Shown here one piece after another: positions 2,469-58,737 of a stretch of 64,000 nt of DNA. The stretch is from IMG/VR virus record IMGVR_UViG_3300045988_183115. The stretch is one strand, 5' to 3'. The DNA comes from a virus. How positions within the stretch are numbered: the stretch's first letter is position 1; the number at the start of each line of letters is the position of its first letter. Both the position numbers and the translations under genes were made by a program. Under the pieces are notes generated by a model, which did no database searches, was not told the DNA's origin, and saw only the letters and a program-made list of their open reading frames with translations.

Positions 2469-2476
2469 GATAGAAA

Positions 2477-2518: not shown

Positions 2519-2521
2519 TAT

Positions 2522-40608: not shown

Positions 40609-41658
40609 ATGAGAATAAACAAGATTAAGACTAATGTAACAGTATTAAACAAGGTAGACCGTAAGAATTACCAGGTAATTAATGTTGATGGTTCAGGTGA
40701 TTCCATTAAAGGAACAGCCAAGTTAATCAAGGAGGATGGTTCACTTGATGATTCGGTTACTGCAGTAATTACAGCTAATAATGCAATAGCTTACAAGCTG
40801 ATTGATGATCCTAATATTCCAGATGTTCCAACTGGATATACTGTAAAAAACGGAATTTTGCTTAAGAATGGAGTCCCTGCTACAGAACAGGGTTCACTTG
40901 TAATTAATAGTATTATTGCAGGTGTTGCAGGAAGACTTATTTTATCTGTCGAACCAAGAGAACCAAGAGAAGGTTATTTCGATATTATGTCATATACAGT
41001 TGAGTCAGATAAGTTTAATAAGCTTATCAGAAGATCTATTCCAGAAGTTACAATCATTGCTTCTTCTGAGAATAAGATGCAGTTATATATGACATATTCA
41101 AGAACTTATACTAAGGATAAGAAGCTTGAAGATGGAACTATTGAAACAGATAATATCTTTGATGCTGCAGCAATCATGTTATATGATGTAATGTCTGATG
41201 CAGTTGTTGATCATGTTTCTTTTGCGGAGCCAATTAAGGCTGTAGATTCTGTTAAGGCACCTAATGAAACAATTTTCGCAATTGAAGCAGATACAGTAGT
41301 CGATTCTGACGGAGTTATCAAGGAAGATGATTATATTACATTAAGATTTGTTGCTTCTGAAGGTCATTCATTAAGTCTTTATAAGACAACAGCAATTGAC
41401 AGTGTTCCAGAATCAATTTCAAAGGGATATAATGCAAGCCTGATTAAAGCTTCTTCAGGCAAGTGGTATATTAATGATATCACATATAAGATCCCAGATA
41501 AGATAGTTGCTGAGCTTGCAGGTTATAATGTAATTGTGGATATTACATCTAAGGATCATGTTACAAGAATTTCTCTTGCTAATACAAATACTATGGAGAT
41601 AAAGACTCTTGTTATTTCTGAAACAAGAGATAGAGGAGACATTATAACCATAGAGTAA
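40609..41658 (+). CDS. hypothetical protein, paralogue 1 of a tandem pair
   Basis: 349 aa. N-terminus (NVTVLNKVDRKNYQVINV...IPDVPTGYTVKNGILLKNGVPATEQGSLVINSI) and C-terminus (DHVTRISLANTNTMEIKTLVISETRDRGDIITIE) are clearly homologous to 41791..42942. Confidence 0.65.
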   Translation: MRINKIKTNVTVLNKVDRKNYQVINVDGSGDSIKGTAKLIKEDGSLDDSVTAVITANNAIAYKLIDDPNIPDVPTGYTVKNGILLKNGVPATEQGSLVINSIIAGVAGRLILSVEPREPREGYFDIMSYTVESDKFNKLIRRSIPEVTIIASSENKMQLYMTYSRTYTKDKKLEDGTIETDNIFDAAAIMLYDVMSDAVVDHVSFAEPIKAVDSVKAPNETIFAIEADTVVDSDGVIKEDDYITLRFVASEGHSLSLYKTTAIDSVPESISKGYNASLIKASSGKWYINDITYKIPDKIVAELAGYNVIVDITSKDHVTRISLANTNTMEIKTLVISETRDRGDIITIE

Positions 41659-41790: not shown

Positions 41791-42942
41791 ATGAGAGAAA
41801 ACAAAATTTTAGAAAATGTAACAGTATTAAACAAGGTTGACAACAGACAGTATTTAATTACATCTGTTACCGATGGCGTAGGAACGGCTTGTCTTTTAGA
41901 AAATGGTGAAGTAAACGAGGATATATCTGTTATGATATCATCATCTAACGCAATTGCTTTTAGACTTATCAGCAATCCTAATATTCCAGATATTCCAGAT
42001 GGATATTCAGTAGAAGACGGAATTTTACTTAAGGATGGTGTTGCTGCTACACAGCAGGGTTCACTGGTAATTAAGAGTATCGTTACATCTGTTCCAGGTA
42101 AGCTTTTATTATCTGTATTACCTAGAGAAAACACAACAGAACATGATGATTATATTGATTTATTTGCTTATAAGCCGGATGAGGATAAGTTTAAGAAACT
42201 TATTCCAGTTTCAATTCCAATGCCGGAAGTTATAGGTGTATGTGACAAATATGTGATACTAAAGACTTCCTATACACACTTTGAAACAAAGAAGGATTTT
42301 AATGGAAAAGATATTTTCGCTGAATATTTTGATAATGCTGAAATTATCGTTTATGATGGTGCAAAGAATTATATTTCAAGTTATTTAATGCTTGATGCAC
42401 CAATAAATAATGTCATTACTGTAAGAAATTCAATGAATGTACCTACATGGGTCATTGAATATACAGAGCAGGTATGTGATAATAATTATTATAATCCTGA
42501 TTGTGATTGTGGTTATGACTGCGAAAATGATTGTGGAGATTATGATGAATGCAATAATTGTGATTATCATTTAGATACAATTACTAATACTAAGGAATTA
42601 ATCGAAATGGATCATATTAAAGCAGAAATGATTGCTCTTAATGGTGGTACATTAATGAGGCTCAATAGTATTAATATCCCTTCACATATTAAATCTGTTT
42701 CAATTGGTTGGAATAGTGCTGATTTTATCAGACTTGAAGACAGAATTATGATTGGAGAGTATGTTGATAAAATCATTACTGATTCAAAGATAATGTCTGC
42801 AGTTGAAGGATATGATTGGATTGTCGATACAAGTAAGGAAGATAATGTAACAAGAATTGCTCTTGCAAACGACAATATGGAAATCAAGTATATTGTTATT
42901 ACTGAAACATCAGATAGAGGAGACGTTGTTAAGGTAGAATAA
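41791..42942 (+). CDS. hypothetical protein, paralogue 2 with Cys/Asp-rich insertion
   Basis: 383 aa, homologous to 40609..41658 at both ends. Contains the extra segment CDNNYYNPDCDCGYDCENDCGDYDECNNCDYHLD. Confidence 0.65.
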   Translation: MRENKILENVTVLNKVDNRQYLITSVTDGVGTACLLENGEVNEDISVMISSSNAIAFRLISNPNIPDIPDGYSVEDGILLKDGVAATQQGSLVIKSIVTSVPGKLLLSVLPRENTTEHDDYIDLFAYKPDEDKFKKLIPVSIPMPEVIGVCDKYVILKTSYTHFETKKDFNGKDIFAEYFDNAEIIVYDGAKNYISSYLMLDAPINNVITVRNSMNVPTWVIEYTEQVCDNNYYNPDCDCGYDCENDCGDYDECNNCDYHLDTITNTKELIEMDHIKAEMIALNGGTLMRLNSINIPSHIKSVSIGWNSADFIRLEDRIMIGEYVDKIITDSKIMSAVEGYDWIVDTSKEDNVTRIALANDNMEIKYIVITETSDRGDVVKVE

Positions 42943-42975
42943 TAAAATAATTAACAATTAAATAATGTGTATTTA

Positions 42976-43011
42976 TACACCAGTTGAGATTAGTCAACTG
43001 GTGTATTTTTT
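42976..43011 (+). terminator. rho-independent terminator
   Basis: TACACCAGTTGAGATTAGTCAACTGGTGTATTTTTTC. Confidence 0.85.
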
Positions 43012-43024
43012 CTGTCATGTATTA
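43007..43024 (+). promoter_or_regulatory. conserved promoter-like motif
   Basis: TTTTTTCTGTCATGTATT lies ~36 nt upstream of 43054. Confidence 0.55.
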
Positions 43025-43053: not shown

Positions 43054-44847
43054 ATGTCAATGTTTGAACATGTAAAAATTGGAGAATTAACAAAAAAGGT
43101 TATTGAGTCAGGAGTTACAGTGTGTGAACATAACCATCCAGGAGGCTCTTTGTTTGATGCCGTAGATGAACCTAAAAGTTATTTAGATGCTGCATTTAAT
43201 GCAGGATATACTAAATTTGCTGTTACGGACCATGCATCATTTTCAGCAATGCAAACATGTATTGATTACGCTAAGAAAATAAGTACTGAGGAACATCCTT
43301 TTAATATCATTTATGGCGTAGAGGCTTATATTGAAGTGCCACCATTTAAGATAAATGAGCAGATTGGCCATATGATTATGTTAGCCACTTCAGAAAGAGG
43401 CAAACATATTATTGATAAGTTAAATTCTAAGGCTTCTGAAAAAAGAATGGGAAAGCCTGTTATTACAATATCAGATTTAAAGAAATATAACTTTAACGGT
43501 GATATAATAGCAACTTCTGCTTGCGTTTCGGGTGCACCAGCTCTGCAATTATTATCAGATGATGTTTTGGATAAAATGATTAACAGAGAAAGAAAAGCAC
43601 AGCAGCATACTACTGAAAAAGACGAGCTAGTTATACGTGATTGTATAAGTCCTGATGATAAAGAATATCTTTCAGCTAAAGATGAATTTGAAAGGGTATC
43701 GGCAGATTTAGATGAATTGATTAATATTCGTGATTCCAAGGAACTTAAATCAGAAAGAACACAGATTTCAAGAAAATTAAGAGATGCAAGAAAGTGTTTA
43801 AATGATGATGATCCAGAGCTTATTAAACTGATTAACGAATATGAGGAGATAAATAATAAAATTCTGGAAGCTAAAGATAAAATTCCTAATGTCAGAAAAT
43901 TAGTTAATGCTAAGAAAGCCGAGTTAAAGGATATAAGTCTTAAAGTAGAGGAATATATTAATCATGAAAATAAGATACAGCATTATGAATCATTAAAGAA
44001 AAGCCCAATAGAATTAATGTCTGAAGCAGAAAAGACAATGCTTTTTTATCAGGAAATTTTTGGAGCAGGTAATTATTACATTGAAGTTCAGAATCATGGG
44101 CTTGAAATGGAAAGCAGAACATATCCTGTGTTAGCTCAGTTAGCAAGGAAGCATAATATCCCATTAGTTGCTGCTAATGATGCACATATGGCAGATAATT
44201 CTGATAGAAGTATTGATATGCGTAATGTAGCTAAATTTTTAAGATTTATTAAGATAAGTGAGTCGGAATCAGATAAAGAGTTATATGTAAAAACACCTTA
44301 CGAACTTGCTCAGGCCTTATCAGCTATATTAACAGATGATCAGGTTGCAGAAGCACTCAATAACTTAAATGTAATTGGAAAAAGATGTGCTTATATTCCA
44401 GAAAAATCTAATCATTATCCAGTATTTGATAAGAACAAGGACTCAAACGAATTATTAAGATCTGAAGCAATTAAGGGAATTAATTGGAGATATCCTAACG
44501 GGAAAGGATGGGATGAAGAACATCAGAAACGAATGGAATACGAACTTAATATTATCATTCAGATGGGCTTTGCCGATTATCATTTAATTGTAAAGGACTT
44601 CCTGGAATATGGAAGAATTTGTGGATTAGTACCTATGGATAAACTATCAGAAGTACCTTTAACAATTGAAGGTGCAAAAGAGTATGTTAAGGCTCACAAT
44701 TATAATACCGGAATTGGAATAGGCATTGGAAGAGGTTCAGGTGCCGGTTCATTGGTTACATATTTACTTGGTATTACCGGAATTGATCCATTTAAGTATA
44801 ATCTGATTTTTGAACGATTCTTAAATCCAGAAAGAGTAAGTATGCCT
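43054..44847 (+). CDS. dnaE: DNA polymerase III alpha (DnaE-type), exon 1: PHP domain + coiled-coil insert + palm N-part, up to the SMP of the SMPDxDxD motif
   Basis: PHP-like N-terminus. [15 protein letters not shown] and [15 protein letters not shown] match Dna[41 protein letters not shown] matches the DnaE palm. The ORF reads through into the intron to 44895. Confidence 0.8.
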
Positions 44848-45787
44848 AAATATATTGGGCGTTCAGCGTGGACTCTAACTCAGAGGTGTGCTTAATATTT
44901 TATTATTAAGTGCTAACGGTAGAAGTTGAATAAGACTGCTATATAAAGTGTCACAACAGGATATATAGCTTAACCCATAGACGAAGCAGCTTCGTAAGAG
45001 AACCTACGGTCCTAATATTTTTATATAAAAGATATTGAAGGATAGCAGGCGATACCGTGCTAAGATTATAAATAATATTATATAAATAAGGAGGTGTATA
45101 TTTATGATAGATTATATCAATTTTACATCATTCCTTGAAAAAGGTGAAAAAATAGTAGAAATTAAAAATCACCACGAATATTACATAACTTCATATGGAA
45201 AGATTTTTAGTATAAAACAAGGGAAAATTCGACAACTTAAACCTTTTTTAGATAGTAAAAAGAATTACAGGATGATAAGATTAGATAATAAAAAATATTT
45301 ATTGCATCGATTAGTTGCGATGAATTTTATTCCTAATCCTTATAATCTACCAGAAGTTAATCATAAAGACAAAAATAAACAAAATTGTAAGGTGAATAAT
45401 TTAGAATGGTGTACTAGAAAAGACAATTTATATGATAGTTATAAAACTATGTCTCCTGTAAGAAATTATAAGTGTTGTAAATTATATAAAGGAGATATAT
45501 TAATTGATAGATTTGAAAGCATATTAGCAGCAGCTCGATATGCTAAAGAAAAATATAACGCAAGTTATTCCTCAATGCATAAATATTTAAAATGGAATGA
45601 CTTAAAAATTGTTCGTATATAATATTATTTATTTTAAAGTGTAACGACTATCCTTTTTAAGGAGTACAACTGAGAATGGTTACAGTTGGAAGTGCGTTGA
45701 AATATAATATTAACAATATTATATTGAGATATAGTCTAATCCCACTTATACAAGTGTTAAAGTACTACGAAAGTAGGGGTATATTTG
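44848..45787 (+). mobile_element. group I-like self-splicing intron interrupting dnaE, carrying an HNH homing endonuclease ORF
   Basis: Protein homology places the junction at SMP|DIDSD. The 5' exon ends in U (44847) and the intron ends in G (45787), as group I splicing requires. The flanks of the endonuclease ORF are GC-richer and look structured. Confidence 0.6.
45104..45622 (+). CDS. HNH homing endonuclease (intron-encoded)
   Basis: YRMIRLDNKKYLLHRLVAMNFIPNP...EVNHKDKNKQNCKVNNLEWCTRKDN is a classic HNH_3-type phage homing endonuclease signature. RBS is AAGGAGG. Confidence 0.8.
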   Translation: MIDYINFTSFLEKGEKIVEIKNHHEYYITSYGKIFSIKQGKIRQLKPFLDSKKNYRMIRLDNKKYLLHRLVAMNFIPNPYNLPEVNHKDKNKQNCKVNNLEWCTRKDNLYDSYKTMSPVRNYKCCKLYKGDILIDRFESILAAARYAKEKYNASYSSMHKYLKWNDLKIVRI

Positions 45788-46543
45788 GATATCGATAGTG
45801 ATCTTGCTCTTGGAGTAAGAGAAAAGACAATTGAGTATGTAAGAGCTAAATATGGTAGTGAAGCTGTTGTTGGAATTATTACAGAATCAAGACAGCAGGC
45901 TAAAGGTGCTATCAGAGATGCTGCAAGATATTATGGAAAGAAAGCTTATGATGATGAAAAGAAATTCTTATCTTTAGGAGATCAGATTCGTAAGAAAGTG
46001 CCTGCTAAAGCAACTAATTTTGAAGATATTGTTGGCATGAAAGATACTAATAAGGTTGATGAATTAGGCATTAATATTCAGGACAGCATTTCTTTGTTAG
46101 ATTTCTTAAAGGATGAATATAATAGTAATCCAGATGCTATTTCTATTCTTAATATTGCAGCTCATTGTGAAGGTATGCTTACGACATACGCACAACATGC
46201 CGCAGGTGTTATTATTTATGATAGTAATGATGTTACTGATTATATTCCTATTAGAGATGGAAAAAAGGGAATTAAAACTACAGAAATGGACATGATTCAG
46301 TGCGAAGCTAATGGATTATTAAAAATGGATTTTCTTGGATTAAAAACTCTTACAATTATTACTGACACACTCAGAATGATTCAGAGAGATACAGGAGAAG
46401 TAATTGATGTAATGAATATTCCATTAGAGGGTCCTAAAGCTGATAAGGTATACAAAGAAGTATATGCAAAAGGAAGAACTAAGAATGTTTTCCAGTTTGA
46501 GTCAGCCGGTATGAGAAATAACCTTAAGAAGTTATGCTCATAG
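45788..46543 (+). CDS. dnaE: DNA polymerase III alpha (DnaE-type), exon 2 (palm/thumb segment), ends with its own stop codon
   Basis: DIDSDLALGVREKTIEYVRAKYGSEAVVGIITESRQQAKGAIRDAARYYG and VFQFESAGMRNNLKKL are colinear with the E. coli DnaE region after SMPDFDVDF through GVFQLESRGM. Confidence 0.8.
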   Translation, partial: DIDSDLALGVREKTIEYVRAKYGSEAVVGIITESRQQAKGAIRDAARYYGKKAYDDEKKFLSLGDQIRKKVPAKATNFEDIVGMKDTNKVDELGINIQDSISLLDFLKDEYNSNPDAISILNIAAHCEGMLTTYAQHAAGVIIYDSNDVTDYIPIRDGKKGIKTTEMDMIQCEANGLLKMDFLGLKTLTIITDTLRMIQRDTGEVIDVMNIPLEGPKADKVYKEVYAKGRTKNVFQFESAGMRNNLKKLCS

Positions 46544-46570
46544 TGAATAGTTAATTGAATATTTTGTATT

Positions 46571-46601
46571 AAAACGCATGTCATTATGATGTGCGTTTTT
46601 T
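46571..46601 (+). terminator. rho-independent terminator after dnaE exon 2
   Basis: AACGCATGTCATTATGATGTGCGTTTTTT. Confidence 0.6.
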
Positions 46602-46614
46602 CTGTCATATTTCT
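46597..46614 (+). promoter_or_regulatory. conserved promoter-like motif
   Basis: TTTTTTCTGTCATATTTCT lies ~40 nt upstream of 46648. Confidence 0.55.
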
Positions 46615-46647
46615 TTTAAATTATAATAAATAAAGGAGAACAATATT

Positions 46648-46884
46648 ATGGAGAAAAATAATAAAACTCTTATGCAACGATTCATTGAGGTTGGATATTC
46701 TGAAAAAGATATGTTTCACCATGAATCAGATTTATATGTATTTGTCACACCAATTACTACTAGAGTTATTAATGAATGGTGTAAGGAAACAGGATTTAAT
46801 AAGGATTGGCATTGCCCTATATTCACAGATCAGATAACTGGGAAACAAATGTATGATTGTGCATTCCAATACTATACTGAATAA
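46648..46884 (+). CDS. hypothetical protein
   Basis: 78-aa ORF with AAAGGAGAA RBS. Confidence 0.5.
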   Translation: MEKNNKTLMQRFIEVGYSEKDMFHHESDLYVFVTPITTRVINEWCKETGFNKDWHCPIFTDQITGKQMYDCAFQYYTE

Positions 46885-46911
46885 AAATAAATAAAGTTTA
46901 AGGAGAAAAAT

Positions 46912-47544
46912 ATGGCAATATTTCATGAACATTTACAATACCATCCAGACACAGTAGAGAAACATAAAATTACAGATAAAGAAATCAAATTTTTGTCTGA
47001 TTTGCAGCATGAATTAAATACACAGGACCATGTAGGACAAGCTGATCCTCGATTTTGGGTTATTATGGGGAAAGAAAAGTGTATTGTTCCAGAAGGATAT
47101 GAAGACGGTGTAACATTAATAGATAATGAGGCAGTCGAAGAAGTTGCTGATAATATTGATGATGCAATTGTATTTTTTAATAAGGAATTTGAAGAAAACG
47201 GTGATTCTTGGGTTATTTCAAAAGAATATGATGGATATTATGTTACATCAAAAGAAGATAATGATTATGAGGAATGTTTAGCTGATCTTGATGATTTAAA
47301 GACTTGGTTGAATGAGCATAATTATGGCAGATATACTTTCACCTGTTATGCATATAGAGATAAAATTTATGAAAACACAATGTTTTTAACAGAAAAGGCA
47401 GCCGCTGAACATCTAAAGGCAAATCATTATCATTACGATGAGTACGCTCATACCTATGCTATGACTGCATGGAGAAGTCCTGAAGTAGAAGATATCATTA
47501 AGATTTTACAGTCAGTAGATTTTTCTGCTATTGTTAGAAAATAA
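46912..47544 (+). CDS. hypothetical protein
   Basis: 210-aa ORF with AAGGAGAAAAA RBS. Confidence 0.55.
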   Translation: MAIFHEHLQYHPDTVEKHKITDKEIKFLSDLQHELNTQDHVGQADPRFWVIMGKEKCIVPEGYEDGVTLIDNEAVEEVADNIDDAIVFFNKEFEENGDSWVISKEYDGYYVTSKEDNDYEECLADLDDLKTWLNEHNYGRYTFTCYAYRDKIYENTMFLTEKAAAEHLKANHYHYDEYAHTYAMTAWRSPEVEDIIKILQSVDFSAIVRK

Positions 47545-47555
47545 AAGAATGATAT

Positions 47556-47611
47556 TATCGCAATTAAGCAAAAAACCCCAACCGACAATAGCCGGTTGTG
47601 GGTAGTTTAAT
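47556..47611 (+). repeat. 56-nt hairpin element, copy E (diverged)
   Basis: TATCGCAATTAAGCAAAAAACCCCAACCGACAATAGCCGGTTGTGGGTAGTTTAAT. The palindrome is CCGGCTATTGTCGG-type with compensatory changes. Confidence 0.65.
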
Positions 47612-47632
47612 TACAAGGATAGGGAAGAGAAT

Positions 47633-48622
47633 ATGATAAATAAAAATATATTAAATATGCCTGAGTATTCATTTTTAAAGGAAAATCAAAATTTAGATAA
47701 GAATATTTGTATACTTGGATTAGGTGGTAGCAGAGCATATGGGACAAATCTTCCAGAAAGCGATATTGATATAAGAGGAGTTGCTGTTAGAAGAAAAGAA
47801 GATATCTTGTTAGGTAATGATTTTGAAAATTTTGTAGATGTTAATACAGATACAACTATTTATAGTTTTGACAAAATTATTGATTTATTAGCTAAATGCA
47901 ATCCAAACACTATTGAACTTTTAGGATTAGATACAGATGATTATATTTATAAAAATGAATTTGGGGAGCTTTTATTAAAAAATAAAGATATTTTTTTATC
48001 GAATAGATGTATTAATACATTTAGTGAATATGCATTACAACAGTTATACCGTATGCAGCAGAAGACCAACGCTGCTTTAACGGAAGAAGAATTAAATAGA
48101 CACATTTCTGGAGTGCTTAATAATATGTCCAAGAAAATGAACGATAAGTACAATTTAGATGAAAATAATGTGTCTTTTTATTTGGTTGACGGCAAAATCA
48201 AATGCAATATTATTGCAACACAGTGTTCAATGGAAGATTTGTCAGGAATGCTTTCAGAATTTAATAACACTTTAAGAGATTACCGGAAAACAAGTAAAAG
48301 GAATGAACATGCATTAAATCATGGTAAAATAGCAAAACATAGTATGCATTTACTTAGATTGTATATGATGGGAATTGATTTAGTTTCTGAAGGGAAAATT
48401 CAAACGAAAAGAATTAAAGAACATGATTTGTTGATGGATATTAGAAATGGTGTATATCTTGATGAAAATGGAATCCCTAATAAACATTTCTTTGAAATAG
48501 TAGATGAATACAAGAATAAGTTTGAAAATGCATGTAAAAACTCTGTATTGCCAGATGAGCCGGATATAGACAAAATCAATACATTTAGAATGGAAGTTAA
48601 TGAGAAAATTGTAAAGTTATAA
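47633..48622 (+). CDS. Pol-beta-superfamily nucleotidyltransferase (minimal NTase fold + C-terminal helical domain)
   Basis: ILGLGGSRAYGTNLPESDIDIRGVAV matches the G[SG]-x9-13-DhD nucleotidyltransferase motif, with a further acidic residue downstream. Length 329 aa. Confidence 0.55.
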   Translation: MINKNILNMPEYSFLKENQNLDKNICILGLGGSRAYGTNLPESDIDIRGVAVRRKEDILLGNDFENFVDVNTDTTIYSFDKIIDLLAKCNPNTIELLGLDTDDYIYKNEFGELLLKNKDIFLSNRCINTFSEYALQQLYRMQQKTNAALTEEELNRHISGVLNNMSKKMNDKYNLDENNVSFYLVDGKIKCNIIATQCSMEDLSGMLSEFNNTLRDYRKTSKRNEHALNHGKIAKHSMHLLRLYMMGIDLVSEGKIQTKRIKEHDLLMDIRNGVYLDENGIPNKHFFEIVDEYKNKFENACKNSVLPDEPDIDKINTFRMEVNEKIVKL

Positions 48623-48627
48623 AATTA

Positions 48628-48660
48628 AACTGGTTACTATTAGTAGCCAGTTTTTTTATT
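48628..48660 (+). terminator. rho-independent terminator
   Basis: AACTGGTTACTATTAGTAGCCAGTTTTTTTAT. Confidence 0.75.
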
Positions 48661-48676
48661 TTTCTGTCATTGTATT
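48659..48676 (+). promoter_or_regulatory. conserved promoter-like motif
   Basis: TTTTTCTGTCATTGTATT lies ~37 nt upstream of 48707. Confidence 0.55.
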
Positions 48677-48706
48677 ATTATAAAATTTAAAAAGGAGAAT
48701 AAAATT

Positions 48707-49165
48707 ATGAAAACTAATGCATTTGAAATTAAGGAAAATAACTTAGAAACAGTAAATGATATGATAGGAGCATTATTGGAAGTGCCTAAGAATTATTTAC
48801 TGCATCCATTAGGACAGAAATGCGCAATTGCAGTTGATAATTACCATAAATGTGTATATTTAGACGATCCTAATATGATGAGCGAGTTTAAATATGAATT
48901 AGAAGAAGATATAAAAGAAAATGATGATTGGAACGGAGCAATCCCTGACGACAGTGATAACCTTGAAAGATTTTCATTTTATTATGTTTGGATAGGATAT
49001 GAGTCAGATTGCGGAGACAATTCAGGAGAATATTCATATTTTTCAAATGAGGATATGGCAAATGATTTCTTTGAATCTTCTAAAAATACTGATAAAACAT
49101 TAGGAACTGCTTCATTTATAAACGGCAGATTAGAACCTGTTAAGGTTATAAAAAGTACATTGTAA
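48707..49165 (+). CDS. hypothetical acidic protein
   Basis: 152-aa ORF with AAAGGAGAATAA RBS. Confidence 0.55.
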   Translation: MKTNAFEIKENNLETVNDMIGALLEVPKNYLLHPLGQKCAIAVDNYHKCVYLDDPNMMSEFKYELEEDIKENDDWNGAIPDDSDNLERFSFYYVWIGYESDCGDNSGEYSYFSNEDMANDFFESSKNTDKTLGTASFINGRLEPVKVIKSTL

Positions 49166-49197
49166 AAAGAAAGGAATTTTATGAAAACTTTAAATAT

Positions 49198-49253
49198 TAT
49201 CGAAGAATTGTAAGAAAACTCCATCCGACAATAGTCGGTTGTGAGTAGTTCAT
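49198..49253 (+). repeat. 56-nt hairpin element, copy F (consensus-like)
   Basis: TATCGAAGAATTGTAAGAAAACTCCATCCGACAATAGTCGGTTGTGAGTAGTTCAT is near-identical to copy D. Confidence 0.75.
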
Positions 49254-49276
49254 GCAAATACAGCAATTAATATAAT

Positions 49277-49294
49277 TGAAAGTGTCATATATGA
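49277..49294 (+). promoter_or_regulatory. promoter-like motif, GTGTCAT variant
   Basis: GAAAGTGTCATATATGAT lies ~48 nt upstream of 49336. Confidence 0.35.
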
Positions 49295-49335
49295 TAATTC
49301 TGATGAAAATAATAACAACTAAAGGAGAATAAGAC

Positions 49336-49593
49336 ATGACAATAATAAGAAATGGTAAGGAAATAAAATTAACATATGACGAAATTTATGCTGCTCATAA
49401 GGAATTTGTTTCAACATGGATGATTAATACAGCTAAAGAGATTATTCAGTCTCAATATCATTCTGATATTACTGAGAATGATTATATTGATATTGGTGAA
49501 GCAGCTTATGATACTTACGCAGAAGGTAACGGTCTTACTGAATATGAAGCTGTTGAAGATGCTGTGGAAAAATTCTTAAGTGAAAGAAATTGA
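49336..49593 (+). CDS. hypothetical protein
   Basis: 85-aa ORF with AAAGGAGAATAA RBS. Confidence 0.5.
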   Translation: MTIIRNGKEIKLTYDEIYAAHKEFVSTWMINTAKEIIQSQYHSDITENDYIDIGEAAYDTYAEGNGLTEYEAVEDAVEKFLSERN

Positions 49594-49630
49594 ATATTTT
49601 GATTTTTCATAACTAAATAAGATTTTTTGA

Positions 49631-49660
49631 AAGCGGGAGACTTATGTTTCCTGCTTTTTT
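49631..49660 (+). terminator. rho-independent terminator
   Basis: AAGCGGGAGACTTATGTTTCCTGCTTTTTTT. Confidence 0.6.
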
Positions 49661-49674
49661 TCTGTCATAAATAT
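49657..49674 (+). promoter_or_regulatory. conserved promoter-like motif
   Basis: TTTTTTCTGTCATAAATAT lies ~34 nt upstream of 49702. Confidence 0.55.
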
Positions 49675-49701
49675 ATTAAAAATTATAAAGGAGAAAAATT
49701 A

Positions 49702-50583
49702 ATGAAAAATATTATGATTTTTGATGGGAATTACATTCTCAGAAGATCTTTTTATGGTGTTCCAGAATTAAAAACCTCAAAGGGATTTCCGACTAATGCA
49801 ATTAAAGGAGCTTTAAATACAATTCTATATATGAAAGAAAAGTATAGTCCTGATGAATTAATTGTTGCGTTTGATACTGCAAAGCCAACTTTCAGGCATT
49901 TAATGTATAACGGGTATAAGGCAACTAGAGATCCTGCACCGGAAGAATTTAAGATTCAGAGACAGGCTATTGTTCCTATTCTTAAAACAATGAATATATG
50001 TGTTATTGAAAAAGAAGGATATGAAGCAGATGATATTATAGGAACAATTTCAACTATTGAAAGTAAAGCCGGAAATAAGGTTAATATTATATCTGCAGAT
50101 CATGATTTGTTACAATTATGTAATGATTTAGTATCATTAGTTGTTCCAAACAACCCGGAAGATATTTGGACTCCGGTAGAAATTATGAATGAGTATTTCG
50201 TTACTCCTAAACAGTTTATTGATGTAAAAACATTAATGGGAGATAAATCGGATAATATTCCTGGAGCTGCAGGTATTGGTCCTAAAACTGCAAGTAAACT
50301 AATACATAAGTATGGAAATTTGTTTAACATATATATGAATATTTCAGATATTGAATCTAATATGTCTAAAGGAAAAAGTATTTCAACTTGTTTAATAAAT
50401 AGTGAAGATAATATTTTGTTGTCAAAAATTTTAGCAACAATAAAAACAGATGTAGAACTTGATGCTTATAACGCTAATGTATCAGATAATATGTTAAATG
50501 AAATTAGTGAGCAGATATTAGGTTTGTATGAACTTAACAGTATTATAAGTATACTTAAAAATGGCAACATTGTTTGCTTATAA
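49702..50583 (+). CDS. 5'-3' exonuclease / flap endonuclease (Pol I 5'-nuclease-like)
   Basis: IFDGNYILRRSFY, YKATRDPAPEEF, EADDIIGTI and the H3TH segment LMGDKSDNIPGAAGIGPKTASKLI are all conserved 53EXO/FEN motifs. ATG at 49702 follows AAAGGAGAAAAA. Confidence 0.85.
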   Translation: MKNIMIFDGNYILRRSFYGVPELKTSKGFPTNAIKGALNTILYMKEKYSPDELIVAFDTAKPTFRHLMYNGYKATRDPAPEEFKIQRQAIVPILKTMNICVIEKEGYEADDIIGTISTIESKAGNKVNIISADHDLLQLCNDLVSLVVPNNPEDIWTPVEIMNEYFVTPKQFIDVKTLMGDKSDNIPGAAGIGPKTASKLIHKYGNLFNIYMNISDIESNMSKGKSISTCLINSEDNILLSKILATIKTDVELDAYNANVSDNMLNEISEQILGLYELNSIISILKNGNIVCL

Positions 50584-50603
50584 TTATATTTAAGGAGAAA
50601 ATC

Positions 50604-51020
50604 ATGATAATTGAAATTTTAACAAATGGTTGGTGTAATATTAAATTCGAAAAGACAAATTGTAGAGTGAACGCTTCATATTTAACTGATGTCCCAAATG
50701 ACTTATTAGATATGTGCATTAATTATTATAACAATAATACGGCATCCTGTTATTTTGATTCTGAAGGCTCTACAGCAACGCTAGTTTTGACACCAGATAC
50801 AGCTTTCATAATTCATGAAGGGGAGCATTTAGGCCTAATTAAACTATTGGAATCACCAAAGGAAATCATTGATTGTATAGTAAAGGAAATTGTAAAACAG
50901 ATTGATTCTGCTGCAAGTTTTTTATCATGTGAATGTAATGATTTATTTCAGTATGAAAAAAGAAAATCTGAATTAATACAAAAATTATATTTTGTACATG
51001 ATAAGAGTGATTCAAATTAA
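50604..51020 (+). CDS. hypothetical protein
   Basis: ATG at 50604 follows TAAGGAGAAAA; the ORF track start at 50574 overlaps the upstream stop. Confidence 0.5.
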   Translation: MIIEILTNGWCNIKFEKTNCRVNASYLTDVPNDLLDMCINYYNNNTASCYFDSEGSTATLVLTPDTAFIIHEGEHLGLIKLLESPKEIIDCIVKEIVKQIDSAASFLSCECNDLFQYEKRKSELIQKLYFVHDKSDSN

Positions 51021-51032
51021 AACAAATGCTTA

Positions 51033-51070
51033 ATAACAAGTACCTATTAATGGGTACTTGTTATTTTATT
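51033..51070 (+). terminator. rho-independent terminator
   Basis: AACAAGTACCTATTAATGGGTACTTGTTATTTTATTTTT. Confidence 0.8.
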
Positions 51071-51086
51071 TTTCTGTCATTTATTT
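51069..51086 (+). promoter_or_regulatory. conserved promoter-like motif
   Basis: TTTTTCTGTCATTTATTT lies ~40 nt upstream of 51120. Confidence 0.55.
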
Positions 51087-51119
51087 ATTATAACAATAAA
51101 TGGAAGGAGAGTAAAAAAT

Positions 51120-51701
51120 ATGATTAAAGAATTTAAGGAATTAGTAAATGCAATAAATTCGCCAGATAATGAATATAGAGAGAATGATTTAGATATGTTA
51201 AATTACAATATGGCCGCATTTGGAGAATATGTACAGATTGTTTATCATCAAAACTATTCAACTCCAATTAAATATGCTACACTTGAGGGAGAAGAATTAC
51301 GAGAAGCTATTCAGTCTATGGATAAAAATCGGAGAATTAAACATGAAGCTGCAATAGCTGCGTGTTCCCAAATCAATAGAGATTGTGAATATTATAATGT
51401 TCCTAAGTTTTGCCCTGAAACAACTGATAGACATATAATCGCAGATTTTTGCGCCCAGATAACGGCTGCTTTTTATCTTGACGGAATCGGTAGAGATGCT
51501 AAAACTATAGATGATGTTATAAAGGCAATGACTCAAAATTGTAAAAGTGTTAATATTAGTAATATAACAAACAATATTGACACAAATGAACTATCAGATA
51601 TTGATTTAGATTTAGGCGGAGAAGATGATGAAGATAAAATTATGCCAGATGTAATTCATACTGAAATTAATAAAGATAACAGAGAGGAAGAAGTAAGATA
51701 A
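51120..51701 (+). CDS. hypothetical protein
   Basis: 193-aa ORF with GGAAGGAGAG RBS. Confidence 0.55.
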   Translation: MIKEFKELVNAINSPDNEYRENDLDMLNYNMAAFGEYVQIVYHQNYSTPIKYATLEGEELREAIQSMDKNRRIKHEAAIAACSQINRDCEYYNVPKFCPETTDRHIIADFCAQITAAFYLDGIGRDAKTIDDVIKAMTQNCKSVNISNITNNIDTNELSDIDLDLGGEDDEDKIMPDVIHTEINKDNREEEVR

Positions 51702-52006
51702 TGGTAACTTTTATTAGAACATATGAATCCGGTCCATGGATAATAGATGAATACGATAATAAAACATATAAAATTCTATTAAGAAGAGATTCAAGAACAG
51801 GTAAAGTCATAAGATTCTTTTTTACTCCAAAGATTCCATATTATGATATTGAAATTAAAACCATAAAAGATGATTTTTATATTAGTATTACTGGTAATGT
51901 TTCATATGATATCAATGATATCGATAAATTAAAAGACAGAATAGATTATGCTAAAAATTTGATCACTTATATAAAAGAAAATATATGTAACAAGTATTCT
52001 TTTTAA
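51701..52006 (+). CDS. hypothetical protein
   Basis: 101-aa ORF. ATGG overlaps the upstream stop (translational coupling). Confidence 0.5.
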   Translation: MVTFIRTYESGPWIIDEYDNKTYKILLRRDSRTGKVIRFFFTPKIPYYDIEIKTIKDDFYISITGNVSYDINDIDKLKDRIDYAKNLITYIKENICNKYSF

Positions 52007-52013
52007 TATTCAT

Positions 52014-52043
52014 GCAAGCGTCCAAAATTGGACGCTTTTTTTA
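52014..52043 (+). terminator. rho-independent terminator
   Basis: AAGCGTCCAAAATTGGACGCTTTTTTTAA, perfect 7-bp stem. Confidence 0.8.
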
Positions 52044-52061
52044 ATTTTCTGTCATAAATTA
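52044..52061 (+). promoter_or_regulatory. conserved promoter-like motif
   Basis: TTTTCTGTCATAAATTAT lies ~38 nt upstream of 52093. Confidence 0.55.
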
Positions 52062-52092
52062 TATAGTTATGAATTGAAAGGAGAAATTTAAA

Positions 52093-53778
52093 ATGAATAA
52101 AACAGGTATTGAAGATTTAATAGCAATGAATGCTTTATATCGTCCTGGCCCTGAAAAGTTTATACCTGATTTCATAGAAGGTAAAAAGGATGCATCTAAG
52201 ATTAAATATTTATGTCCTCAATTAGAGCCAATTCTGTCAACTACTTATGGACAGATAGTTTATCAGGAACAGGTAATGCAGATTGTTCGTGATTTAGCAG
52301 GATATACATGGGGGCGTTCTGATTTAGTCCGTAGAGCTATGTCAAAAAAACATCAGGATGAAATTGATGCTGAAAGACACACTTTTGTATATGGTAATGC
52401 TGATACTAAAAAAGAAAATGAAGCATTAGTACCAGGATGTATTGCAAATGGAATACCAGAAGAAATTGCTCATAAAATCTGGGATGCGATGGTTGACTTT
52501 GCTAAGTATGCGTTTAATAAGTCACATGCCACTGCTTATGCTGTTACATCATATTGGACAGCTTTTCTTAAGTATTATTATCCGGCTTATTATCTTACAA
52601 ATGTAATAAATCATACTGATAAGATTGATGAAGTCGCTGATGATATTAGTGATGCCCTTGATTTTGGAGTAAAGGTATTGCCTCCGGACATTAATGCTTC
52701 AAATTTACATTGTGATGTTGTAGATGGGAACATTTTGTATGGTCTGAGTAATATTAAGAATGTTGGATCAGAAGCAGCTAAAATTATTGAAGATAGAAAT
52801 GTTAATGGAGAATATTCTGATATTAAGGATTTTATCAAACGAACAAATATTAATGCAGAAGCATTAAGTTCCTTAATTAAAGCAGGTGCTTTCGATTGCC
52901 TTGGTTATACAAGAACAATGATATCATTAGATATGATTTGTATGAAAGAAATTCAGGATACAATTAAGAAAATCAGAGAGAAGAGTAAGTTTATTGAAAA
53001 CGCAAGTAAAGTTATTGAATTTGTGGAAGATTATATTGATCTTGATGAGTTTAAGGAAAGAATTTCAGAAGAAAATATTTCCTTTCAAGTTACTTCAAAA
53101 AAGATGCCAACTAAGGATTCCATAATTAAACGTATCAATTCAGCTAAGACAGTTATAGAAAGCTTAGAAGATGATCTTGAAAATATAGATATTGATTATG
53201 TAGAAGATGATTTAGGTCAGATTCTAAATGATGAAAAAGAAGTGTTAGGTGTTTATATTACAGGGCATCCAATTGATGAGTATAATATTTATACAGATCC
53301 CATTTCTGATATTTCAACAGAAGTTAACGATGTATCTGGTATAATTAAAAATCTTGTTGTAAGAAAGGATAGAAATGGATACGAATGGGTAACTTTTGAG
53401 GTAGAAGATAAAACAGGTTCTATTAATGGTGTATGTTTTTCTAAAGATTATGCAAATATTAGAGACTTACTTGTTAATGATGCTAAATTATGTTTATCAG
53501 GAAAAATTCAAGTAGATGATTTTAGATCTTCAGATGACGAAACTGTATATCAGATTATTGTTAAGTCTGTTAAACCTTTAAAGAAAAATAAGTCTTCATA
53601 CAGATTTATATGTACTGTTTCCGAAGTAAACGATGTTCTTGATTCTATTAATGAATATCTGGTAGATAATGACGGGGATTATTTATATTGGCTTGATTCA
53701 ACAACCGGAATTGAACATTTATGCAAGAAATTCATTAACCCTGATATGTCAGCACCTTCAATAGTACGCAAATGCTAA
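52093..53778 (+). CDS. dnaE: DNA polymerase III alpha (DnaE-type), C-terminal piece (fingers, beta-clamp-binding, OB-fold region), separately expressed
   Basis: EDLIAMNALYRPGPEKFIPDFIEGKKD continues E. coli DnaE (FEDMIALVALFRPGPLQ) directly after the end of exon 2. Further matches include YQEQVMQIVRDLAGYTWGRSDLVRRAMSKK. The C-terminal OB-like part includes VVRKDRNGYEWVTFEVED. Confidence 0.8.
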   Translation: MNKTGIEDLIAMNALYRPGPEKFIPDFIEGKKDASKIKYLCPQLEPILSTTYGQIVYQEQVMQIVRDLAGYTWGRSDLVRRAMSKKHQDEIDAERHTFVYGNADTKKENEALVPGCIANGIPEEIAHKIWDAMVDFAKYAFNKSHATAYAVTSYWTAFLKYYYPAYYLTNVINHTDKIDEVADDISDALDFGVKVLPPDINASNLHCDVVDGNILYGLSNIKNVGSEAAKIIEDRNVNGEYSDIKDFIKRTNINAEALSSLIKAGAFDCLGYTRTMISLDMICMKEIQDTIKKIREKSKFIENASKVIEFVEDYIDLDEFKERISEENISFQVTSKKMPTKDSIIKRINSAKTVIESLEDDLENIDIDYVEDDLGQILNDEKEVLGVYITGHPIDEYNIYTDPISDISTEVNDVSGIIKNLVVRKDRNGYEWVTFEVEDKTGSINGVCFSKDYANIRDLLVNDAKLCLSGKIQVDDFRSSDDETVYQIIVKSVKPLKKNKSSYRFICTVSEVNDVLDSINEYLVDNDGDYLYWLDSTTGIEHLCKKFINPDMSAPSIVRKC

Positions 53779-53800
53779 TTTAATATTTATTTTATGTTTT

Positions 53801-53829
53801 ACCGCTGTTTATTGCAGCGGTATTTTTTT
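53801..53829 (+). terminator. rho-independent terminator
   Basis: ACCGCTGTTTATTGCAGCGGTATTTTTTT. Confidence 0.85.
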
Positions 53830-55213: not shown

Positions 55214-56242
55214 ATGGCAGATAAGAATTTATTATTAAATAAAAAAAACAATAAAGATGAATATATTGATGAATTATTTGATACAAATAAACCAATAGAA
55301 AACATAAATATTTTATCAGAGGATAATTATACCGATATTTTAAATGATAAAGAGATTTTAAATGAAAAAGAGAAACTATTATTAGAAAATAATATAACTT
55401 ATTATATTAAATCATTCGCTGATTATCCGGTTTTATCCAAAGATGAAACTCTTAAATTATTTGAAGAGATAAAAAAACATCCTAAAAAGAAAAAAGAAAT
55501 AACCGAAAAATTGATTTTATCTAATATGCGTTTAGTCATCAGTATTGCTAAAGCTGTTACAGCTAAAACGCAAAGTTTTGAAATGGATGATTTATGTCAG
55601 GCCGGTATTTTCGGGTTATACAGAGCTATACAAATGTTTGATTATAAATTAGGATATGCATTTTCAACTTATGCAACTCATTGGATTAGACAGAGTATAT
55701 ATAGAGAATTAGCCAATTATGATTTATTAGTTAGATTCCCTGTACATGTAAGAGAACAGGATTCTTTTGTTAAGACTACATTTGTGGATTTAACTAATAA
55801 ACTTCAAAGAAAACCTACAATTGATGAATTATATGATGTAGTAAAACAAAGATATCCTCTTTTAACTAAAGAAATGCTTGTGCATATTCAGAGTTTTAAT
55901 GAATTGGTTTCATTAGATGCACCTATTCAAAGTGATGAAGGCCATGACGATTCATGTTTGGCTGATTATATAGAAGCTCCTGAACCTAAAGTTGAAGATA
56001 CGATTATTCAAAAAGAAATGAAAGAACTGCTTTGGAAAGAAGTTGAAGATTGTCTCACTCCTAGAGAATTATATGTAATTAAGGGTAGAATGGGATATGG
56101 CTCAAAAGTTAAAACTTTACAAGATATAGGTACTGAATGGAATGTATCCAGAGAACGAATCAGACAGATTGAATCAAAAGCAATAAAAAAGATTAGAGTT
56201 CGTTTCAGACGGAAAGGATATAGTATACAATCTTTTATGTAA
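55214..56242 (+). CDS. sigma-70 family RNA polymerase sigma factor
   Basis: Region 2 is NMRLVISIAKAV...DLCQAGIFGLYRAIQMFDYKLGYAFSTYATHWIRQSIYREL. Region 4 HTH is LQDIGTEWNVSRERIRQIESKAIKKIR. Confidence 0.85.
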   Translation: MADKNLLLNKKNNKDEYIDELFDTNKPIENINILSEDNYTDILNDKEILNEKEKLLLENNITYYIKSFADYPVLSKDETLKLFEEIKKHPKKKKEITEKLILSNMRLVISIAKAVTAKTQSFEMDDLCQAGIFGLYRAIQMFDYKLGYAFSTYATHWIRQSIYRELANYDLLVRFPVHVREQDSFVKTTFVDLTNKLQRKPTIDELYDVVKQRYPLLTKEMLVHIQSFNELVSLDAPIQSDEGHDDSCLADYIEAPEPKVEDTIIQKEMKELLWKEVEDCLTPRELYVIKGRMGYGSKVKTLQDIGTEWNVSRERIRQIESKAIKKIRVRFRRKGYSIQSFM

Positions 56243-57523: not shown

Positions 57524-58465
57524 ATGCAAAAAATGAATTACGAAAATTTTCTTAAACATCTTAAATTCGAATTACTTCAAAATATTGAAGATATTACACC
57601 AACAGATATAGTTTGCACATCAGATAAGCTTATTTTTCATTCTAAAAATCAGTTTATGTGTCCCTTAGAATTTAAATTAAATCAATTATATAAACAATAT
57701 TTAAATAATTCGTCAATAGAAGAAATTGCATTGTCAATATCTGAAGCATTTTATAGAAACAAAAATTCTAATGGTAGTGAATATAAACTTAATAATTTAG
57801 CTCCAGAAATTAATTTAAATGATATAAAACACTATATTATACCTCAATTAATACAAAAGCCGGACAATATGGAAGATTTAAGCGGTATTCCTCATAGGCC
57901 ATTTTATGAGTTCGAAATAATTTATAATGTGATCATACCTAAAGAAAATTCAGAAGGTACAATGTTTGTAATTGATAATAACTATATGAGAGACATACTG
58001 AAAATTGATGAAAACGAATTGTACAATCTTGCAATTCATTCAATATATTCCAACAAATATTTTATCAGTGTATTAGGTGATTATTTTTTGACGCAACTGG
58101 CAGATGATGATAATTATGAAAAAACAAAGAAAGAATTATTTTCTCTAAGTAATTCTGATGGGTTTGAGAGCAAATGTATTAAAGGAATATATGCAATTCA
58201 AAATATAATTGACTTTTATAACACAAGTGCAATTCTGAATAATAATTTGCTTAAGAATATTTCAGAGAAACTGAAAACAAATTTATACATTGTTCCTGTT
58301 ACAGCACATATTCTGTTGATATGTAAATACAATGAATTTACTCCTGAAGAAATTCAAATGGCATTAAAGATATTTGGTATTCAGGAAGAAGAAGATTATC
58401 TGAGTTCAGATATATTTATATTTAACAAAGAATCAGGTGAATTAAGTGAACTACCCACCACCTAA
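57524..58465 (+). CDS. hypothetical protein; stop codon overlaps the left-end hairpin of the IscB element
   Basis: 313-aa ORF with AAAGGAGAATTAA RBS. C-terminal codons ...ELPTT-stop lie within CCCACCACCTAAAGGTAGTGGG. Confidence 0.6.
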   Translation: MQKMNYENFLKHLKFELLQNIEDITPTDIVCTSDKLIFHSKNQFMCPLEFKLNQLYKQYLNNSSIEEIALSISEAFYRNKNSNGSEYKLNNLAPEINLNDIKHYIIPQLIQKPDNMEDLSGIPHRPFYEFEIIYNVIIPKENSEGTMFVIDNNYMRDILKIDENELYNLAIHSIYSNKYFISVLGDYFLTQLADDDNYEKTKKELFSLSNSDGFESKCIKGIYAIQNIIDFYNTSAILNNNLLKNISEKLKTNLYIVPVTAHILLICKYNEFTPEEIQMALKIFGIQEEEDYLSSDIFIFNKESGELSELPTT

Positions 58466-58737
58466 AGGTAGTGGGCTTCTGTTAAATGGTTCACCAGACT
58501 AAGTATTCAGAAATGGATACTACGATATTTAGGTTATGATACCTTCGGTTGACGCAACAGACCGTTGCTCTATCGTACATATTTAAGTTAGGTCAGAGTA
58601 AGAACAGCCTTGTGATATGTACATAAAAGCCTTTATATCATTGTCGAGTTGAAGTCGGAACAATCGTATGGTAAACAGTACGACAAAGTACGCATCACCT
58701 ACTATTAAGTAGAGTATTTATAAGGAGGAACTTATTT
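58466..58737 (+). ncRNA. putative IscB omega RNA scaffold (IS left-end region upstream of iscB)
   Basis: A 270-nt GC-enriched, ORF-free stretch lies immediately 5' of iscB and begins with an imperfect hairpin. This is the position where IscB omega RNAs are known to be encoded. No tRNA features. Confidence 0.5.

Follow-up and report, generated by a model that had tools for sequence, protein, structure and literature searches.

The alpha subunit of DNA polymerase III (Pol III alpha, DnaE) is the textbook single-chain bacterial replicase, and to our knowledge the only well-known natural split of this enzyme is the one that is repaired by an intein. In cyanobacteria (Ssp and Npu) DnaE is produced from two genes and its halves are joined by intein fragments at a break that lies at the FNKSH motif (site FAEY/CFNKS). 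The subject here is a dnaE gene on a 64-kb viral window (the whole stretch of DNA that was analysed, IMG/VR record IMGVR_UViG_3300045988_183115) which likewise encodes the enzyme in two genes but has no intein residues, is broken about 150 residues upstream of FNKSH and in its first half carries what is, judged from its sequence, a group I intron. The analysis is computational and arrives, with a probability of roughly 0.8 for the explanation as a whole, at the replicative C-family polymerase of a phage or prophage of ~95-103 kb which is interrupted in two unrelated ways.

Split replication enzymes are known from other phages. In Aeromonas T4-like phages gene 43 (43A/43B) and nrdA are split and the chains co-purify and are active; phage 44RR has a short untranslated intercistronic sequence between 43A and 43B, whereas phage 25 has an endonuclease gene there (Edgell et al. 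2010, PMC2988022). The locus in the window is like 43A/43B in that an essential replication enzyme would be made as two separately translated polypeptides, and the contrast between 44RR and phage 25 is paralleled by that between a relative with a very short gap (L137) and the window. Unlike 43A/43B and NrdA, which are a B-family polymerase and a ribonucleotide reductase, it is Pol III alpha that is split here, in the fingers, and the split is kept over a deep clade (to ~45% identity) in which the gap has grown to 2-18 kb. The group 2.2 jumbo phages encode a minimal Pol III alpha catalytic module as two stand-alone proteins from distant genes, and these halves are predicted to reconstitute the enzyme (Iyer et al. 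2021, PMC7824862). That module consists of the palm only, is split between the NTP-binding and the Mg/DNA-binding subdomains and occurs in phages that also carry a family B polymerase, in contrast to the full-length DnaE described here (PHP, palm, thumb, fingers, HhH and OB) which is split in the fingers. An engineered Pfu polymerase (family B) split near the fingers is reported to stay active as two chains (PMC3061061); this split is artificial and differs from that of the window DnaE in both family and site.

The closest relatives of the intron are the phage introns of subgroup IA in Staphylococcus Kayvirus and Twort-like phages, in Bacillus SPO1 and SPbeta and in the lysin genes of S. thermophilus phages, which have the same core with P7.1 and P7.2. 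Like known phage group I introns, the window intron carries its open reading frame (ORF) in a peripheral loop, interrupts a replication enzyme at a catalytic motif and is present in some genomes but absent from others; it is unlike them in its host gene, a C-family DnaE, and in belonging to a gut Lachnospiraceae-associated phage. It is thus a further member of a well-known kind, and the dnaE site is already occupied in deposited genomes. The clade-wide intein-less split of a full-length C-family polymerase in the fingers adds a new form to the known split polymerases, among them T4-like gp43, the jumbo-phage module and cyanobacterial DnaE. In the literature searched, which covered few subscription journals, no description of a phage dnaE intron or of an intein-less split phage dnaE was found. 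The locus is laid out as follows.

43054..44847, + strand: dnaE exon 1, with PHP and the start of the palm up to …ERVSMP; the ORF as called by program runs on into the intron as far as 44895
44848..45787, + strand: predicted group I intron of 940 nt, IA-like with P7.1/P7.2, missing to the base in the ~98% identical L002
45788..46543, + strand: dnaE exon 2, with the remaining palm (DIDSD…, KMDFLGL) and some 60 residues from the start of the fingers, up to …LKKLCS-TAG
46648..52006, + strand: island between the chains, nine intact ORFs in four motif-bearing units
52093..53778, + strand: gene of the C-terminal chain (C-chain), 561 aa, with the remaining fingers (NALYRPGP, RRAMSKK, FNKSH), HhH and the OB fold
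53800..53822: terminator 3' of the C-chain gene

The ORF coordinates of the dnaE pieces, the HNH gene and the island had been noted in an earlier sequence-only reading and proved accurate to the base. According to Pfam the first piece (ORF 43054..44895) carries PHP and positions 55-102 of the 260 of the palm profile, the second (ORF 45785/45788..46543) palm positions 103-260 and positions 1-59 of the 166 of the finger profile, and the third (ORF 52093..53778) finger positions 63-162, HHH_6 and OB. The palm (102/103) and finger (59/63) profiles are therefore continuous over both breaks, and PHP, palm (typified by DxD plus a third Asp), fingers, HhH and OB stand in canonical order over the three pieces. 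Among solved structures, 2HPI, 5LEW and 2HNH align with the junction region, with E values of 1e-45 to 1e-52. The N-terminal chain (N-chain) encoded by the two exons measures 849 aa, and exon 2 has no ribosome-binding site (RBS), ATG or cassette of its own. At 1410 aa the two chains together are much longer than the solved Pol III alpha chains of 1160 aa and 1220 aa, partly because of a Lys/Glu-rich insertion of ~150 aa at N-chain residues ~175-330, after the part matched by the Pfam PHP profile (within 43054..44847).

The probable intron in the palm motif

Exon 1 ends at T44847 (…AGT ATG CCT, SMP) and the last intervening base, G45787, is followed by GAT ATC GAT (DID); the site separates the Pro of the SMP/DxD palm motif from its first catalytic Asp. 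These are the boundaries of the sequence-only reading, and they are confirmed to the base by Pfam continuity and by a natural allele. Of two IMG/VR contigs with 98-99% identity to the window, L001 has the 940-nt element and L002 lacks exactly 44848..45787, with a junction that reads …ATGCCT/GATATC…, elsewhere given as …AGAGTAAGTATGCCT/GATATCGATAGC… and as …AGTATGCCT/GATATCGAT…. The L002 allele fixes the boundaries of the intron and demonstrates its presence/absence polymorphism, and exact removal of the 940 nt gives a continuous conserved frame, in L002 as in the palm profile. In many assemblies the 849-aa N-chain is found as a single ORF, which falls in the same 90% cluster as the 613-aa ORF of exon 1. 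The exact 613-aa ORF occurs on 188 contigs, compared with 1-22 contigs for each of the 849-aa variants listed; among the listed cluster members from public assemblies, the intron-bearing allele is the commoner of the two.

Four other genomes, those of three deposited phages and of a metagenomic relative, have DNA at the same dnaE codon boundary (xxP/D[IV]D) that matches the non-coding ends of the element. The Staphylococcus SPbeta-like phage (KT429160, L003) has an ORF-less version of ~480 nt between the ORFs annotated dnaE_2 and dnaE_1, Mammaliicoccus phage phi127 (L004) has an intron at the same dnaE site, and in Bacillus phage G (L005) gp329 is followed at this site by the homing endonuclease gp330 and by the next exon, gp331; the metagenomic relative, L015, is 65% identical to the window N-chain. 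In the regions fetched, the KT429160, phi127 and phage G records name the flanking ORFs only as separate genes (such as dnaE_2/dnaE_1 and gp329/gp331). Staphylococcus phages of the Kayvirus/Silviavirus groups contain sequence that is 84-86% identical to the 3' core (P7-P9 region) and that adjoins genes with an annotation as intron-encoded endonucleases; S. thermophilus phages match this core as well. The parts of the element are listed below.

44843..44861, + strand: P1 helix, in which 44843..44849 (5' exon UGCCU and intron AA) pairs with the guide 44855..44861
45068..45632, + strand: peripheral helix that loops out the HNH ORF, with arms at 45068..45084 and 45616..45632 (17 nt, 100% complementary)
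45104..45622, + strand: HNH homing endonuclease, 172 aa, HNH_3 and NUMOD4, phrog_59, with its own RBS
45634..45740, + strand: 3' domain of the catalytic core with J6/7, the P7 5' strand GACUAU, P7.1, P7.2, the P3' strand, P8 and the P7 3' strand AUAGUC

The HNH ORF matches HNH_3 (E 5.9e-9), phrog_59 (E 2.6e-34) and NUMOD4 (E 4.6e-4, 20.8 bits, slightly below the Pfam cut-off of 23.4 bits). Its GC content is ~0.25 against 0.31-0.36 in the intron flanks, a difference which the sequence-only reading had already pointed out. L015 has an equivalent 17-nt pair of different sequence around its own ORF. Endonuclease alleles circulate in intact (172 aa) and in broken (116 + 48 aa) form, and together with the presence of the element in L001 and its absence from L002 they point to mobility of the homing-endonuclease type.

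The Rfam model of group I introns, RF00028, finds no match on the window element, either at the gathering threshold or at E<=10 (44600..46000). At E<=0.1 it gives no group I match on four annotated relatives either, nor on L003, which has its intron at the same site but without an ORF. Since Rfam is silent on the element, a comparative route was taken that combined a pattern search, Rfam on ORF-less members and a covariance model of our own. The core pattern ACGACTAT…AGTAC…GGAAGT is found in >120 viral contigs, and Rfam Intron_gpI matches ORF-less members that share it, with 82 bits in L076, 80.8 in L020 and 59.8-69.6 in L018 (cut-off 50), exactly at the core pattern. In these Rfam alignments, that of L076 among them, the R/P7 element is taken by ACGACUA and the S/P7' element by GAUAUAGUC; the pair of hairpins that separates R from S is handled as an insertion, at the place that P7.1/P7.2 take in subgroup IA. 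The resulting core order of AACGACUAU, P7.1, P7.2 and GAUAUAGUC is that of known phage IA introns.

Covariation was measured on a structure-blind MAFFT alignment of 52 non-redundant members from which the window and its near-identical relatives had been left out. P7.1 and P7.2 pair in 96.9% of the alignment cells compared with <=48% in slid controls, and show double-sided changes in 155 cells against ~40 in shuffles; P7 was set by the search pattern and is hence uninformative in this test, and P8 was left out of the seed structure as MAFFT placed it out of register. The covariance model built from this alignment (R1) has a single match in the 64-kb window, at 45634..45740 (72.5 bits, E 1.1e-12), in which all pairs are standard. 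At the 5' splice site the wobble pair U44847·G44857 lies in P1, U·G is present in 5/5 same-site introns, and the pair beside it shows a compensatory change from G-C to A-U; over these five introns RNAalifold finds compensatory changes in 17/50 predicted pairs. The last base of the intron is G45787, and G is also terminal in the introns of L003, L005 and L015, in keeping with the group I junction rules (U at the 5' site, terminal G) invoked in the sequence-only reading. The 5' domain has a covarying long-range helix (ACGGUA/UACCGU, in two sequences ACAGUA/UACUGU) as well as nested helices, and by eye the AUAUU loop bases just 5' of the guide can pair with the start of exon 2, GAUAU, in a P10-like manner.

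Against a group I intron stand the negative Rfam searches and a P3 that is ambiguous by eye, and the assignment rests on family transitivity, our own covariance model and covariation. The RF00028 miss is probably due to the 565-nt loop that contains the ORF and to a divergent P2-P6 region. An unspliced, free-standing HNH gene that leaves the polymerase as three polypeptides or as a dead gene would fit the silence of RF00028, and free-standing HNH genes are common in phages. We nevertheless regard this as very improbable as piece 2 lacks an ATG, an RBS and a cassette, the boundaries fall exactly at the P1 U·G and the terminal G, and removal of the element gives back precisely the frame and catalytic motif of the natural allele that lacks it. 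In addition the RNA flanks are conserved, covary and match a model derived from group I introns, and an intron-bearing allele that is the commoner one among the listed members is unlikely for a lethal disruption between catalytic residues.

The intron-less L002, P1, the R1 match and the covariation identify break 1 as a group I intron that encodes an HNH endonuclease, as the sequence-only reading had proposed, and as a mobile one. The invasion, decay and loss that are seen among its alleles correspond to the states predicted by the homing cycle. Transcription would start from the cassette at 43010, after which the intron would splice itself out and join 43054..44847 to 45788..46543, with a ligated exon junction of …AGUAUGCCU/GAUAUCGAU…, and the product would be the 849-aa N-chain, which comprises PHP, palm and thumb and reaches ~60 residues into the fingers. 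The HNH endonuclease would cut intron-less alleles (site …GTAAGTATGCCTGATATCGATAG…) and drive homing.

Related introns also occur in other settings. One viral contig holds three Rfam-scored group I introns within 1.2 kb (L018 1169..2321, - strand), and Enterocloster phage CB457P1 (L006), a ~97-kb Lachnospiraceae phage, has a related intron-like core with a large P8 insertion at ~2460..2860, between two hypothetical ORFs.

The break in the fingers

The second piece ends in a true stop codon, TAG at 46541..46543. Next comes a hairpin of 13 bp (46571..46599, -13.9 kcal/mol) with a T-run after it. The third piece is preceded by a terminator (52016..52037), the motif TTCTGTCAT at 52047, AAGGAG and an ATG, and it has stand-alone homologues. 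Both observations uphold the view of the sequence-only reading that piece 2 is properly terminated and that piece 3 is a separately translated gene. The ~36 closest homologues or clusters of piece 3 (99% to ~43% identity) are all stand-alone proteins that consist of the partial finger, HhH and OB only; most are ~540-660 aa long and a few are shorter, probably as truncated calls. Stand-alone N-chains of 808-893 aa are found at 99% to ~47% identity to the spliced N-half, and in at least 18 protein clusters they end within one residue of the same alignment column (…LKKLFA-stop, …LKQLLN-stop), where fused DnaE relatives of 1300-1460 aa read straight on (…LKKLQP-TS-IEDIVAMNALYRPGP). Most C-chains start 2-10 residues before IED…NALYRPGP.

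At the break there are two extra residues at the end of the N-chain and five at the start of the C-chain, 7 in all, and neither a Hint/intein Pfam match nor a terminal HN or nucleophile signature was found in the dnaE pieces. The small number of extra residues and the lack of a Hint domain exclude an intein, in agreement with the sequence-only reading. That the halves are nonetheless rejoined into one polypeptide, by a split intein or by RNA trans-splicing, is an idea with precedents: split-intein dnaE is a textbook case (cited in PMC3919608), and fractured genes are on record in which endonuclease genes lie between the halves of a split intein (PMC2677866). It is almost certainly wrong for this locus, as seven residues offer no space for intein halves, the protein signatures are missing, the break is distant from FNKSH, no second match to the intron model and no other Rfam intron is found in the window, and the flanks of the break are wholly explained by terminator, motif and RBS.

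The break corresponds to ~L682/K683 of Thermus aquaticus Pol III alpha, and the concatenated window sequence has three extra residues there compared with the solved chain. Such extra residues are what one would expect of a loop that tolerates indels. The DxD aspartates and KMDFLGL are on the N-chain, and NALYRPGP, RRAMSKK (RRAMxKK), FNKSH, HhH and OB on the C-chain. With catalytic aspartates and finger motifs on different chains, the two would have to associate non-covalently into one active site.

Both halves are separate ORFs in relatives, which places the gene with the two-ORF polymerases of the 43A/43B type, and the conserved motifs are intact in both chains across relatives. The two halves also diverge alike, with 68% and 65% identity in L007 and 55% and 53% in a 110-kb contig. 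It could be argued that a gene with two interruptions is a decaying, non-functional remnant in a phage that uses the host replisome, the more so as a prophage life is possible and carrying contigs reach 777 kb. Against such decay, which is barely credible, both chains are full-length with intact catalytic and finger motifs at 45-99% identity on hundreds of contigs, and the halves are similarly diverged within the same genomes. From the intein-less split that is kept throughout the clade, and by analogy with 43A/43B, DnaE is most likely assembled from two polypeptides, as the sequence-only reading had supposed.

In a neighbour-joining tree computed without bootstrap, the forms that are split at this site make up one clade. 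A fused protein, P0127, nests within the split clade in that tree, and this counts against the explanation as a whole, as does the fact that splicing, the promoter activity of the motif, the two polypeptides and their association are all inferred. The linker of P0127 has 7 residues, the sum of the split tail and head (2+5), rather than the ancestral 4, and on this ground P0127 is suggested to be a secondary re-fusion. In another lineage (L138 7314..11611; P0032-P0035, P0141, P0143) the split is found ~35 residues downstream, after …RPGP..IPEYIEG…, with a spacer of ~89 nt in L138 that holds terminator, motif and RBS; this part of the fingers has thus been split at least twice.

A subgroup of C-chains (P0013, P0016-P0018, P0021, P0022, P0025 and P0029) has an N-terminal extension of 45-75 aa before IE(L/D)IIAMNALYRPGP. 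The extension lacks any intein signature and may be a docking element that was added. C-chain variants are present on up to 74 contigs each, and the contigs that carry exactly these proteins are up to 300-777 kb long. In one source a 99% identical C-chain is attributed to a metagenome-assembled genome of Lachnospira pectinoschiza, a host in which the element probably also exists as a prophage or episome. The whole locus has no match among GenBank phages (megablast) and the nearest deposited phage DnaE C-regions are only 38-40% identical, for which reason the clade is known from metagenomes only.

The gap between the chains and its surroundings

The gap between the two chains differs widely in size and content among relatives, which are given here with the identity of their C-chain to piece 3 unless stated otherwise.

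L137 (46%): gap of 93 nt with terminator hairpin, T-run, ATGTCATA motif, RBS and ATG
L007/L008 (65%): gap of ~2 kb with flap endonuclease (FEN), DUF3232 and an ORF of 107 aa; N-chain encoded by one ORF of 893 aa
Window: gap of 5.5 kb with nine ORFs
L001/L002 (98-99% DNA identity): gap as in the window plus one more intact small ORF
One 110-kb contig (53%): gap of ~18.4 kb with opposite-strand genes, ParA and Rep3

In L009 and L011 a search of the 10 kb upstream of the C-chain yielded no N-chain; in L009 the N-chain is located 18 kb away on the same contig. The ORFs of the island in the window are the following.

46648..46884: 78 aa
46912..47544: 210 aa, phrog_3205, function unknown
47633..48622: RlaP-type nucleotidyltransferase
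48707..49165: 152 aa
49181..49213: small ORF, truncated
49336..49593: 85 aa
~49699..50583: 5'-3' exonuclease/FEN
~50574..51020: 138-148 aa
51120..51701: DUF3232
51701..52006: 101 aa

The four motif-bearing units and nine ORFs of the sequence-only reading, including a nucleotidyltransferase and a FEN, are all found, and one of the other seven is identified as DUF3232; six of the nine have no Pfam match, one of which matches phrog_3205. The units begin at the motifs at 46600, 48662, 49660 and 51072. The truncated small ORF measures ~88 aa in L001/L002 (L001 13414..13591) and is cut to 10 codons in the window (49181..49249) by the replacement of 177 nt with 49 nt, a difference among genomes that are 98-99% identical which indicates that the island is still changing. 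The units are bounded by cassettes, of which those that frame the dnaE genes are given here.

42975..43018, + strand: cassette before exon 1, the first of the locus, with terminator hairpin 42975..43006 and TTCTGTCAT 43010..43018
46571..46608, + strand: cassette after the N-chain stop, with terminator hairpin 46571..46599 and TTCTGTCAT 46600..46608
52016..52092, + strand: cassette before the C-chain gene, with terminator 52016..52037, TTCTGTCAT 52047..52055 and RBS AAGGAG

The order within a cassette is hairpin, T-run, TTCTGTCATAT, ~25 nt, AAGGAG and ATG, and a cassette starts every unit of the locus except exon 2 and the HNH ORF. The exact motif occurs 20 times on the + strand of the window (sites include 4756, 13182, 38239, 41743, 43010, 46600, 48662, 49660, 51072, 52047 and 57478) against a single copy on the - strand; if one mismatch is tolerated the count rises to 85, where shuffles give 28.5 +/- 5. 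In 16 of the exact copies an RBS and start codon lie 40-51 nt downstream, and many copies follow hairpins; the motif is also found upstream of the C-chain gene in L007 and L138. A sigma-70-type factor is encoded at 55214..56242, and TTCTGTCATAT may be an extended -10-type promoter that is read by this phage sigma factor.

In T4-like phages the PeSL cassettes, in which a stem-loop and a promoter lie at unit boundaries in hyperplastic regions, are proposed mediators of gene gain and loss (PMC2839356, PMC4122927). The window cassette (hairpin/T-run/TTCTGTCATAT/RBS) appears to share the PeSL layout and bounds every island unit, with sequence and phage group unrelated. A repeated stem-loop and motif at unit boundaries, the strand bias and the set spacing to start codons are likewise consistent with a PeSL-like element.

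The sequence-only reading had suggested that the 5.5-kb island is a mobile cassette which landed in an intact dnaE and thereby split it. The discrete units with their own terminators and motifs, the content that varies even among 98-99% identical genomes and the existence of fused DnaE relatives would all agree with such an insertion. The comparison with related genomes, which that reading had itself proposed, instead found what it had listed as an argument against mobile insertion, identical split points in differing contexts: at least 18 clusters share the split point, with gaps of 93 nt in L137, 2 kb in L007 and 18 kb with opposite-strand genes. Furthermore, none of the island ORFs encodes a recombinase, transposase, integrase or homing endonuclease by Pfam and PHROG, and counterparts in the L007 gap exist for only 3/9 of them, the FEN, DUF3232 and a small ORF. 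Insertion of the island as the cause of the split is therefore improbable. A giant cis-intron or a ribosomal bypass over the island is ruled out by the terminators in the gap and the opposite-strand genes of one relative, as well as by spacers that contain stops and whose frame is not conserved.

The contexts point to the reverse order of events, in which the split came first and the island accumulated afterwards in an older gap. On a model that seems to us about an even bet, the split would have arisen once, in the ancestor of the phage clade, beginning as one terminator-promoter-RBS cassette or an equivalent short spacer within dnaE, the state that is seen in L137. The gap would then have become a hyperplastic region in which cassette-bounded gene units were gained and lost, with the FEN, DUF3232 and the small ORF entering first (the L007 state) and six more units later in the lineage of the window. 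This order, spacer first and genes later, is a parsimony argument from ~six sampled contexts and is the least secure part of the explanation, which tells against it.

Outside the polymerase locus, two paralogous ORFs lie directly upstream of dnaE at 40609..41658 and 41791..42942 (349 and 383 aa); their N- and C-termini are alike and they have no Pfam match. L001 has ~1.67 kb of additional DNA at window position ~40500. Further downstream, a HEARO/omega RNA (Rfam RF02033, 109.8 bits) is found directly before a 419-aa IscB-like ORF with RRXRR and HNH (58738..59997), and the region 58446..59997 looks like an OMEGA/IscB element within the phage genome.

Consequences of a probable two-chain polymerase

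An apparently common clade of gut phages or prophages would thus keep Pol III alpha as two chains without inteins. As the break separates the catalytic aspartates from the finger motifs, it would offer a natural system for the folding and assembly of C-family fingers, and it points to a permissive site for an engineered split DnaE. The series of gaps, from 93 nt through 2 kb and 5.5 kb to 18 kb, together with one likely re-fusion would trace the stepwise passage from a gene break to a hyperplastic region. As to annotation, current pipelines call these pieces separate or partial genes of DNA polymerase III alpha, or else an OB-fold protein, and dnaE introns have been missed in Bacillus phage G and the Staphylococcus SPbeta-like phage.

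A wider reading, which is tentative and on balance unlikely, is that C-family replicases can be obligate heterodimers with a two-chain active site and that the clade keeps the break for a reason. If so, the separate cassettes would allow the N-chain and the C-chain to be produced or dosed independently, and the gap would serve as a protected landing pad in which accessories such as the FEN are co-regulated with the polymerase. The insertion of a promoter-terminator cassette would then be a general route by which phages split essential genes, which would explain both the second independent split ~35 residues downstream and the one apparent re-fusion.

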